Below are positions 58,165-60,089 of a stretch of 64,000 nt of DNA, one piece after another; within the stretch, counting starts at the first letter, position 1, and every line of letters starts with the position of its first letter. Position numbers and translations under genes: made by a program. The notes under the pieces are model-generated. The model ran no database searches. It worked only from the letters and a program-made list of their open reading frames with translations, and was not told where the DNA came from. This DNA is from an uncultured Bacilli bacterium (GTDB taxonomy: Bacteria; Bacillota_I; Bacilli_A; RF39; UBA660), in assembly GCA_963931305.1 (NCBI GenBank), contig OZ006994.1:282955-346954 (forward strand). The letters are read 5' to 3'.

Positions 58165-58255
58165 CTTGTCAAACAATAGTAAAATAAAATGGCAAATATT
58201 GACTATCAATTTAGGTCATGGTATCATGATAGTGTAATAATAGAAGGAGGAAACT

Positions 58256-58705
58256 ATGAAAACAAATCAAAAAGGATTTACATTAATTGAATTATTAGCA
58301 GTAATCGTTATCTTAGCAGTTATCGCATTAATTGCAACGCCACTTATTATGGGAACAATTACAAAAGCTAAGAAAAATTCTGCTGTAGACTCTGCTTACG
58401 GATATATGAAAGCAGTAGAACAAGCTATTGGAGAGGCACAAGTAGATGATCCAACTGGAGCATTTGATATTTCTGGTGCTACAGTAATTGTATCTGGAAG
58501 TGGATCACAAGCAGGAAATCAAGTACAAATTAAATTTGATGGTTCAAGTTCAGTTGATAAGACATTATCTGTAAATTATAAGGGAAGTGAACCAGAAAAT
58601 GGTGGAACTTTAAAATATGATGCCAATGGACGTGTAACCGATGGAACTTTAAAGATTGGCGGATATACAGTTACCATTACAAATGATAAAGCCACAGTAA
58701 ACTAA
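58256..58705 (+). CDS. Type IV pilin / pseudopilin-like protein, copy 1 (prepilin GFTLIE N-terminus)
   Basis: MKTNQKGFTLIELLAVIVILAVIALIATPLIMG: class III signal peptide with Glu at +5. RBS AGGAGG. Confidence 0.75.
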   Translation: MKTNQKGFTLIELLAVIVILAVIALIATPLIMGTITKAKKNSAVDSAYGYMKAVEQAIGEAQVDDPTGAFDISGATVIVSGSGSQAGNQVQIKFDGSSSVDKTLSVNYKGSEPENGGTLKYDANGRVTDGTLKIGGYTVTITNDKATVN

Positions 58706-58722
58706 TTTAATAGGAGGAAAGT

Positions 58723-59148
58723 ATGAAGGAAAATAATAAAGGATTTACATTAATCGAATTATTAGCAGTAATCGTAATCTTAGCAGTTATCGCATTAATC
58801 GCAACACCATTAATTATGGGAACAATTACAAAAGCTAAGAAAAATTCTGCTGTAGACTCTGCTTATGGATACATGAAAGCAGTAGAACAAGCAATTGGAG
58901 AACATCAAGTAGATGATCCAACTGGAGCATTTGATGTTGCAGATAAAACATTTAAAACAAAGAATAATGGAACAACCATTACAACAGATTCTTATGCTGA
59001 TTTAGAAATTACCGTAAATTATAAAGGTAGTCAACCAACCGATGGTGGAACACTTACATATGATGCCAATGGACGTGTAACAAGTGGGACATTAGAAATT
59101 GGTGGATATACTGTAACAATTACAAATGATAAAGCAACTGTAAACTAA
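58723..59148 (+). CDS. Type IV pilin-like protein, copy 2
   Basis: N-terminal 60 aa nearly identical to copy 1. Variable middle. Conserved C-terminus …TLTYDANGRVTSGTLEIGGYTVTITNDKATVN. Confidence 0.75.
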   Translation: MKENNKGFTLIELLAVIVILAVIALIATPLIMGTITKAKKNSAVDSAYGYMKAVEQAIGEHQVDDPTGAFDVADKTFKTKNNGTTITTDSYADLEITVNYKGSQPTDGGTLTYDANGRVTSGTLEIGGYTVTITNDKATVN

Positions 59149-59170
59149 GAAGTGAAAGCTTCTTTTTTTC
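59147..59170 (+). terminator. Rho-independent terminator between pilin copies 2 and 3
   Basis: AAGAAG-tgaaag-CTTCTT followed by T5. Confidence 0.6.
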
Positions 59171-59181
59171 TTTCTATGTCA

Positions 59182-59190
59182 TGGTATAAT
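59182..59190 (+). promoter_or_regulatory. Extended -10 element TGGTATAAT for the copy3-copy4 unit. The related GTCATGGTAT motif also sits upstream of copy 1 at 58215-58224.
   Basis: TGnTATAAT about 20 nt upstream of the copy 3 start. Motif duplicated ahead of both pilin units. Confidence 0.45.
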
Positions 59191-59210
59191 AAAAATAATA
59201 GGAGGAATAT

Positions 59211-59609
59211 ATGAAAAGAGAAAATAGTGGATTTGTAATCATTGAATTATTGGTAGTACTTGCACTTATCATCCCATCACTGATTATGGGAACTGTTACG
59301 AATGCGAAAGAAGATGCGGCAGTTGATTCTGCTTATGAATATATGAGAGCAGTAGCAACTAGTATGGATGAAATACAAATAGAAGATGCAAGTAAATTTA
59401 CGAAACAAGAAGAAATTACCTTTACAGTAAAAGAAGGTGGAGAATTATTAGTAACAGATGGTGCAACTTTGCAAATAAATTATGTTGGAAGTAAACCAGA
59501 AGATGGTGGAACTCTTACGTATGATAAAAATGGACGCGTTATAAGTGGAACATTAGAGATTGGTGGATACGAAGTAACGATTACCAATGATAAAGCGACT
59601 GTAAATTAG
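59211..59609 (+). CDS. Type IV pilin-like protein, copy 3, with a 7-residue in-frame deletion in the N-terminal hydrophobic helix and a non-canonical GFVIIE
   Basis: MKRENSGFVIIELLVVLALIIPSLIMG, against GFTLIELLAVIVILAVIALIATPLIMG in the other three copies. C-terminal body close to copy 4. Confidence 0.6.
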   Translation: MKRENSGFVIIELLVVLALIIPSLIMGTVTNAKEDAAVDSAYEYMRAVATSMDEIQIEDASKFTKQEEITFTVKEGGELLVTDGATLQINYVGSKPEDGGTLTYDKNGRVISGTLEIGGYEVTITNDKATVN

Positions 59610-59621
59610 TAGGAGGAAAGT

Positions 59622-60041
59622 ATGAAGATAAATCATAAAGGATTTACATTAATTGAATTATTAGCAGTTATTGTTATCTTAGCAGTTATTGCATTAATTG
59701 CGACCCCACTGATTATGGGAACAATTACGAAAGCGAAAAAGAATGCGGCAATTGATTCTGCTTATGGATATATGAGAGCAATGGAGACAAGTATTGGTAA
59801 AATTCATGTAGAAGATGCAAGTAAAATTATGGAACAAGAAGAAATTACCTTTACTGTAGAAAATAATGGAGCTTCTTTAGTAACAGATGGTGCAACTATG
59901 GAAGTAAATTATAAAGGAAGTAAACCAGAAGATGGTGGAACTCTTACGTATGATAAAAACGGTCGTGTTGTTCGAGGAACTTTAACAATTAGTGGATATG
60001 AAGTAAAGATTACAAATGATAAAGCGACGATTGAAAACTGA
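59622..60041 (+). CDS. Type IV pilin-like protein, copy 4
   Basis: Canonical prepilin N-terminus. Body similar to copy 3. Confidence 0.75.
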   Translation: MKINHKGFTLIELLAVIVILAVIALIATPLIMGTITKAKKNAAIDSAYGYMRAMETSIGKIHVEDASKIMEQEEITFTVENNGASLVTDGATMEVNYKGSKPEDGGTLTYDKNGRVVRGTLTISGYEVKITNDKATIEN

Positions 60042-60058
60042 AAAAATTCAGTTTTTTT
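60038..60058 (+). terminator. Rho-independent terminator after pilin copy 4
   Basis: CTGAA-aaaa-TTCAG followed by T7. Confidence 0.6.
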
Positions 60059-60089
60059 ATGTTATAATATTTTTTATTGGAGGTGTGAT

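Follow-up and report, generated by a model that had tools for sequence, protein, structure and literature searches.

Four adjacent pilin-like genes that are conserved at both ends and variable in the middle can be read as subunits of one filament, as a set of minor pilins or as the cassettes of a switching system. Which of these applies was asked for positions 58199-60058 of a 64,000-nt stretch of contig OZ006994.1 (hereafter the window), which belongs to an uncultured, low-GC, spore-forming gut Bacilli bacterium (G+C content of the window, 28.7%) and carries four tandem pilin open reading frames (ORFs) on the forward strand, designated c1 to c4. The answer favoured here, which we hold to be fairly probable, is that the four genes encode paralogous type IV pilins of the major type, which machinery encoded at another place in the genome would process and assemble. 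As far as sequence can tell, the locus would be a fairly ordinary multi-pilin site and not a programmed antigenic-switching system, and it would call for no new mechanism.

The four pilin paralogs and their predicted fold

A first-pass annotation of the window had described four tandem pilin-like paralogs with a prepilin N-terminus, and the ORFs agree with this. Against PF07963 (N_methyl, cut-off 21.2 bits), c1, c2 and c4 score 35-38 bits, and against TIGR02532 (cut-off 16.3 bits) they reach about 35 bits; c3, at 15.6 bits, falls slightly under the TIGR02532 cut-off and keeps G-1, F+1 and E+5. A six-frame motif scan of the window confined the prepilin signature to c1-c4. All four genes have an ATG start and an AGGAGG ribosome-binding site 6-8 nt upstream, including c2, which starts 17 nt past the end of c1 and has a site of its own. 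The mature proteins are all acidic (pI 4.2-5.0) and cysteine-free.

At the protein level, the other copies are 55-79% identical to c1. The products of c1 and c2 are identical up to residue 60 save for leader residues 3-5, the c4 helix departs from them at a few positions only, and the final ~45 residues are conserved in all four, so that the conserved C-terminal block and the diverged centres reported in the first-pass annotation are both seen in the alignments. Its pairing of the centres (copies 1 and 2 versus copies 3 and 4) needs to be qualified: the divergence between the groups is real (47-55% nucleotide identity; 48-60% among c1, c2 and c4), but the centres of c1 and c2 are also far apart (60%, vs. 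84% for c3 and c4). Among 33 close family members, variability is maximal at residues 71-105, i.e. the alpha-beta loop and the first strands, and the hydrophobic N-terminal helix (alpha1N) is invariant.

The AlphaFold model of c1, built with 92 family sequences (pLDDT 88, pTM 0.73), places a helix at residues 10-64, followed by seven strands. That of c3 (pLDDT 78.5) has the same helix-plus-sheet layout, with low confidence for the shortened helix (pLDDT 50-67). In these models, c1 and c3 both adopt the lollipop fold of type IV pilins, a long N-terminal helix on an antiparallel beta-sheet. The family profile also matches the N-terminal helices of PilE1 (8pfb, E=2.8e-07), Thermus PilA4/PilA5, MshA and geopilin.

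In the explanation favoured here, c1-c4 would encode prepilins whose 7-residue basic leader, ending in Gly, is cut by a prepilin peptidase encoded elsewhere, giving mature proteins with Glu5, Pro22 and Phe at the start. The filament would have the hydrophobic alpha1N as its core and the small beta-sheet head, which lacks cysteine, at its surface. With their near-identical alpha1N and different heads, c1, c2 and c4 would most likely be co-polymerised by one machine into a mosaic, heteropolymeric filament, or used alternatively. The evolution of the locus would involve duplication in tandem, exchange between paralogs by unequal crossover or gene conversion, and whole-allele replacement between strains. 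This turnover would diversify the exposed alpha-beta loop (residues ~70-105), presumably under phage or host immune pressure, at the level of the population rather than by programmed switching.

Origin of the array and exchange between paralogs

The sister species L090 (L numbers denote contigs) has the order P1-g1-g2-T1-P2-g3-T2, in which P and T stand for promoter and terminator, and the helix of its g3 is full-length. In the central regions, c2 is orthologous to L090_g2 and L007_g1, and c4 to L090_g3 and L007_g3, while c1 is a divergent type; c4 is the best-conserved type across species, with a nonsynonymous divergence (dN) of 0.062 from L090_g3. Because the relatives carry this layout, with a single gene in the second unit, and because of the central-region orthology, c3 and c4 are best explained by a duplication inside unit 2. 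Two promoter-gene-gene-terminator units are indeed present, as first described, but the second did not arise by duplication of a two-gene unit.

Mosaic tracts, which had been suggested as something to look for among the four genes, were found in c3: it is c4-like up to codon 125 (72:13 informative sites) and c2-like beyond (8:15), with a maximum chi-squared permutation P of 0.0005. The c2-like 3' tail covers codons ~126-150, and the junction between c3 and c4, including the intergenic ribosome-binding site, resembles that between c1 and c2. In the sister species L007, neighbouring paralogs are 94-96% identical over their first 60 codons vs. only 64% in their centres, and the 5' part of the genes tracks the neighbouring paralog, not the ortholog (P=0.0005), as expected of homogenised sequences. 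A further maximum chi-squared breakpoint, in c4 at codon 30, was discarded, as it reflects the divergent N-terminus of c3 and not conversion.

Variation between strains

The array is 100% identical over 2 kb in five assemblies, the other four being long-read metagenome contigs, although minority variants would not be visible in such consensus sequences. Two contigs of the same species, L097 and L098, retain c2, c3 and c4 and have another type of gene 1 (142 aa). Between the window and these two, synonymous divergence (dS) is 0.59 in gene 1 vs. 0.005-0.07 in the flanking genes, and the divergent tract runs from ~58180 to ~58830, i.e. from the promoter into the start of c2. The alignments thus identify gene 1, with its promoter, as a tract replaced wholesale between strains of one species. 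A third strain, L180, has the c1 type, and its synonymous divergence from the window declines from 0.26 in c1 to 0.09 in c2, 0.03 in c3 and c4 and 0.01-0.02 in the flanks. The order c2-c3-c4 is kept in the three strains.

Two sequences, P0122 (in L087) and P0068, join the N-terminus of c3 to the C-terminus of c4 at two different crossover points, the L087 chimera being directly followed by nfo. They were rejected as proof of ongoing recombination, as they may be assembly artefacts: in L087, an assembly collapse is possible because the crossover lies in a 44-nt run identical in c3 and c4, the assembly is k-mer based (Logan) and the contig starts in the 3' repeat of c2.

As a whole, the mosaic tracts, the homogenised 5' parts and the replacement of gene 1 bear out the recombination among paralogs that had been put forward for this locus, but not a programmed cassette mechanism. 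Judged from these alignments, exchange between paralogs takes place on an evolutionary timescale, and the pattern is the one usually seen when the exposed surface of a pilin diversifies over a core that is conserved, with variation between strains and not within a clone.

Transcription signals

The coordinates of the genes and of their putative transcription signals are given in Table 1. The predicted layout consists of two units, P1-c1-c2-T1 and P2-c3-c4-T2.

Table 1. Pilin genes and predicted transcription signals of the array, with positions in the window
Feature	Coordinates	Strand	Description	Remarks
Promoter P1	58199..58227	+	TTGACT, 17-nt spacer, extended -10 TGgTATCAT	10/12 consensus matches, TG present; position conserved in relatives
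c1	58256..58705	+	type IV pilin paralog, 149 aa	PF07963, TIGR02532, AlphaFold pilin fold; hypervariable first gene
c2	58723..59148	+	type IV pilin paralog, 141 aa	PF07963, TIGR02532; orthologs L090_g2, L007_g1
Terminator T1	59147..59169	+	AT-rich 7-bp hairpin + U7 after c2	-6.3 kcal/mol, z -0.7, weak
Promoter P2	59178..59190	+	GTCATGGTATAAT	extended -10, no clear -35; conserved in L090, L097, L180; absent in L007/L095
c3	59211..59609	+	pilin paralog, 132 aa	6-codon alpha1N deletion, GFVIIE; conserved in L097, L098, L180
c4	59622..60041	+	type IV pilin paralog, 139 aa	PF07963, TIGR02532; ortholog of relatives' lone unit-2 gene
Terminator T2	60033..60058	+	AT-rich 10-bp hairpin + U-run, overlaps c4 stop codon	-8.4 kcal/mol, z -2.9

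P1 holds a shared 10-mer, GTCATGGTAT, at 58215-58224. This 10-mer occurs three times in the window vs. 0.11 expected, and two of the three copies head the two units; the extended -10 of P2 is TGGTATAAT at 59182-59190. The motif duplication described in the first-pass annotation therefore stands for the promoters, since GTCATGGTAT heads both units, but not for the terminators, as T1 and T2 are not copies of each other. Both hairpins are conserved in L090 and L007, where T1 has a U-G to U-A change, and T1 is probably a leaky intrinsic terminator.

In the sister species L007 (2486-2525) and L095 (5348-5387), no promoter can be recognised between the T1 hairpin and the final pilin gene, and the ribosome-binding site of this gene is weak, whereas the TGGTATAAT promoter is present in the window, L090, L097 and L180. 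In L007 and L095, the c4-type gene may depend on read-through for its expression.

The shortened third copy

Copy c3 had been described as carrying a 21-bp deletion in the hydrophobic helix. The deletion is in frame and does yield GFVIIE, but it amounts to 18 bp (6 codons), with its junction at 59249/59250, in alpha1N. The predicted mature c3 begins FVIIELLVVLALIIPSLIMG, has its proline at +15 rather than at +22 and is left with a hydrophobic segment of ~19 residues. The same deletion and an intact ORF are found in three strains, and short-helix orthologs of c3 occur only in this one species.

The dN to the outgroup L090_g3 is 0.212 for c3 vs. 0.062 for c4 (~3.4 times as high), with the excess concentrated in the otherwise invariant helix, while the overall dN/dS of c3 is 0.25 to L090_g3 and 0.49 to c4. 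Clearly relaxed or altered constraint is suggested by these sequences. When c4 was subjected in simulation to 60-80 random substitutions, only 1-8% of the sequences stayed stop-free and, because so few do, the c3 ORF appears to have been held open by selection for most of its history. The recent changes, between strains, are 5 nonsynonymous to 2 synonymous.

As for the product, c3 had been proposed to be a silent donor cassette. This is not supported, because the gene lies directly downstream of the best -10 element of the locus; it also has a full start codon and a strong AGGAGG. Its product is probably still made, inserted into the membrane and cleaved. Since the shorter alpha1N would sit out of register in a filament, c3 is most likely degenerating or confined to a minor role. 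In the favoured explanation, it would be a young, species-specific duplicate of the c4 type, a poorly polymerising subunit on its way to being lost or to taking up a specialised role at low abundance.

That c3 has instead gained a new function, for example by ending or capping the chain or by staying in the membrane and modulating assembly, is in our view unlikely, although several features speak for it: the deletion and the intact ORF shared by three strains, a promoter and ribosome-binding site of its own, a long-term dN/dS below 1 (0.25-0.5), the low chance of survival of the ORF under neutrality (P about 0.01-0.08) and the retention of G-1, F+1, E+5, the 19-residue hydrophobic segment and a predicted pilin fold. 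On the other side stand the limitation of c3 to one species, the 3.4-fold nonsynonymous rate with its concentration in the helix, the 5:2 ratio of recent changes, the low model confidence for the helix, the c3/c4 fusion variants, which, if real, would remove c3, and the lack of any known precedent for such a role. A more specific form of the idea is less likely still. It starts from the fact that alpha1N of c3 is shorter by 6 residues, about 9 Å or roughly one subunit rise, and takes c3 for a naturally evolved short-stem pilin, cleaved but out of register, that terminates or caps the chain or is kept in the membrane and modulates assembly there. If this were true, c3 would be an undescribed pilin-derived regulator of filament length or number.

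Minor pilins and the location of the pilus machinery

Four pilin-like genes in a row are also the usual layout of minor pilins, and c1-c4 could be a minor pilin or pseudopilin set of the ComGD-GG, GspH-K or FimU-PilVWX type, priming or capping a competence pseudopilus or a filament resembling the type II secretion system, with the major subunit and the operon elsewhere. The best fold match of the array is a minor pilin, there are weak partial matches, mostly at the N-terminus, to the ComGC, ComGD, GspG and GspH models, and comG operons have been reported in Erysipelotrichales relatives (PMC12786226). However, such sets consist of distinct, non-paralogous proteins, whereas c1-c4 are paralogs at 55-79% identity, present in 1-4 copies at the same site between relatives and all with Glu5. 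In NCBIfam, the ComG, Gsp and PilA equivalog models match c1-c4 at the N-terminus only and far under their cut-offs (15-29 bits vs. 75 for ComGC, NF040999, with 27-29 for the best, and 28-32 bits vs. 88.85 for GspG). The possibility that one of the genes encodes the competence major pilin ComGC itself failed in the same way, as ComGC has ~100 aa and a reduced head and c1-c4 have 132-149 aa and a seven-strand head. An abundant, exposed subunit would also agree better with the strength of the ribosome-binding sites, the presence of dedicated promoters and the hypervariability of the surface region. On balance, a minor-pilin set is improbable.

Several points nonetheless weigh against major-type pilins served by a distant machine. 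The Foldseek matches of the AlphaFold model are led by FimU chains throughout (probability 0.93-0.99, best 0.99), i.e. by a minor pilin, and at a low TM-score. PilB/ComGA, PilC/ComGB and PilD/ComC were found neither in the window nor within 10 kb of any array of the family, so that a pilus machine, if the genome has one, would lie outside the window and these 10-kb flanks. Queries with PilB and PilT in tblastn matched nothing in any locus with the family-specific C-terminal domain. As for the window itself, they gave no match to a GspE-type ATPase, and no secretion ATPase, T2SSF platform or A24 peptidase is among the Pfam matches of its genes, in agreement with the first-pass annotation, which had listed no assembly ATPase, platform or prepilin peptidase gene there. 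T1 is weak, and a consensus scanner called neither T1 nor T2. The recent changes in c3, at the ratio given above, are compatible with near-neutral drift. Finally, the strain comparisons draw on few metagenome assemblies, and expression and co-assembly are predictions from sequence.

The case against programmed switching

The resemblance to the Neisseria pilE/pilS type of antigenic or phase variation, in which one expressed gene is rewritten from donors and c3 would be a silent or non-secreted donor, lies in the tandem arrangement of homologous cassettes whose ends are conserved and whose centres vary, in the detectable mosaic tracts and in the P0122/L087 and P0068 chimeras with their two crossover points, of which that of L087 is possibly an assembly collapse. 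The four copies are, however, full-length, each with a ribosome-binding site and ATG, and c3 comes directly after a consensus extended -10. The rest of the window holds neither truncated or promoterless copies nor further pilin-gene fragments, the similarity outside the array being at chance level. Neither strand of 57900-60300 contains a G-quadruplex (G4) or C4 pattern, the only flanking inverted repeat is a 20-nt pair of 75% complementarity, which is at chance level, and no recombinase lies at the locus, the closest being more than 30 kb off, inside a mobile element. Given the lack of silent copies, G4, inverted repeats and a nearby recombinase, together with an array identical in five assemblies and a constant c2-c3-c4 order in three strains, we regard programmed variation by conversion as very improbable. 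Moraxella tfpQ/tfpI-Piv switching was likewise rejected, as it needs inverted repeats and an adjacent site-specific recombinase, and neither was found.

Genomic context

The neighbours of the array are housekeeping genes, in the order HD-domain gene, valS, DAO/Rieske oxidoreductase, pilin genes, nfo, sodA, penicillin-binding protein gene, rpmG, efp and infC. All relatives examined have pilin genes in this position downstream of valS: one copy in L089, two in L094, three in L088, L090-L093 and L007, and four in L095, L097, L098 and L180. The family-specific C-terminal domain was found in only one lineage of uncultured 'Bacilli/Tenericutes/Firmicutes' gut metagenome-assembled genomes, while contig scans with the family alignment mostly returned unrelated pilins that have only the N-terminal helix in common. 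The unannotated genes adjoining the arrays gave no Pfam match, and a literature search on pili in RFN20-type Bacilli found nothing.

A lineage of uncultured gut Bacilli with small genomes thus keeps a strongly signalled, deeply syntenic pilin locus beside valS, of which the exposed pilin part turns over by duplication, gene conversion and allele replacement between strains. Type IV filaments are a likely colonisation, DNA-uptake or phage-receptor structure in these bacteria, and the natural series of one to four paralogs, with its short-helix variant, offers material for studying how heteropolymeric pili are built.

An Rfam search returned nothing inside the array, only the T-box of the valS region. 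This T-box leader (134 bits, 53116-53319) precedes the HD-domain gene and valS, which in turn stand before the array throughout the lineage. In two relatives (L093, 2846-3757; L094, 1013-1924), family 2 glycosyltransferase genes and a HigB/Peptidase_M78 module are found directly upstream of the DAO/Rieske gene and the array, and a link with pilin glycosylation is possible. Two otherwise identical contigs of the same strain (L002 and L003, positions 1-8365) have a valS called as just 583 aa, directly preceded by genes for a 559-aa serine recombinase, a sortase and HU and by IS91/integrase genes, a layout that suggests a second mobile element in or beside valS in part of the population.

Other features of the window

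A 15.3-kb element at 11390-26655 interrupts spoIVA, whose 5' part lies at 10191-11477. The ORF of the window keeps the ATPase and middle domains and has no SpoIVA_C, and contig L005, 98.8% identical, has an intact 491-aa spoIVA without the element, with a 5-bp overlap at the junction. With a large serine recombinase at its right end (25026-26681), a tyrosine integrase (18653-19615), a primase-like gene (21946-23829) and a helix-turn-helix gene, it resembles either an intervening element of the skin type or what is left of a prophage. Directly upstream of spoIVA, positions 36-10109 carry a giant ORF, of >1663 aa in the window and 2376 aa in L005, and after it ORFs of 517, 177, 190, 190, 184 and 356 aa, with no Pfam match save a Peptidase_S24-like one at 7864-8436, perhaps a SipW-type signal peptidase; the group may represent an operon for a fibre or for secretion, of the TasA/camelysin type or another. 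A MazE/PemK-type toxin-antitoxin pair lies at ~46636-47213, with a small CotD-like gene just upstream (Pfam, L006 gene calls).

Comparison with known systems

Several type IV pilin paralogs per genome, some of them away from the machinery, are also known in Clostridia (C. perfringens pilA1-4 and the C. difficile pilA genes), but these are far more divergent than those of the array and mostly lie in or beside pil operons. The array shares with Neisseria pilE/pilS its homologous cassettes, conserved ends, variable centres and gene-conversion-like mosaic tracts, and differs from it in having no promoterless 5'-truncated silent copies and no G4, all copies being apparently expressible, and in showing no variation among the consensus sequences of five assemblies. 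In structure, the array comes closest to the GspH-like minor pilin FimU of Pseudomonas aeruginosa (4ipu), at 16% identity and a TM-score of 0.33, but FimU is a unique member of a four-protein priming complex, whereas the array consists of near-identical paralogs.

In Thermus thermophilus, PilA4 and PilA5 (6xxd, 6xxe) form wide and narrow pili with one machine and, in the same way, the several putative major pilins of the array could yield alternative filaments; unlike these, PilA4 and PilA5 did not arise as tandem paralogs in recent time, and experiments have shown their distinct roles in competence and twitching.

The closest precedent is Streptococcus sanguinis PilE1/PilE2 (PMC10628169, PMC6497953), which like the present case is from a monoderm member of the Bacillota. 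The array differs from it in holding up to four paralogs in two transcription units, apart from a pil machinery locus, in its strain-variable copy number and gene-1 type, in its one shortened alpha1N and in that co-assembly is here predicted from the genes. The S. sanguinis pilus is a stochastic heteropolymer of the tandem major pilins PilE1 and PilE2, which have an identical alpha1N, and a role of its mosaic surface in immune evasion has been proposed (PMC10628169). Both systems have adjacent paralogs that differ in the head and alpha-beta region and share their alpha1N, and in both the pilins are of small size, lack cysteine, carry a short leader and have Phe1 and Glu5 in the mature form.

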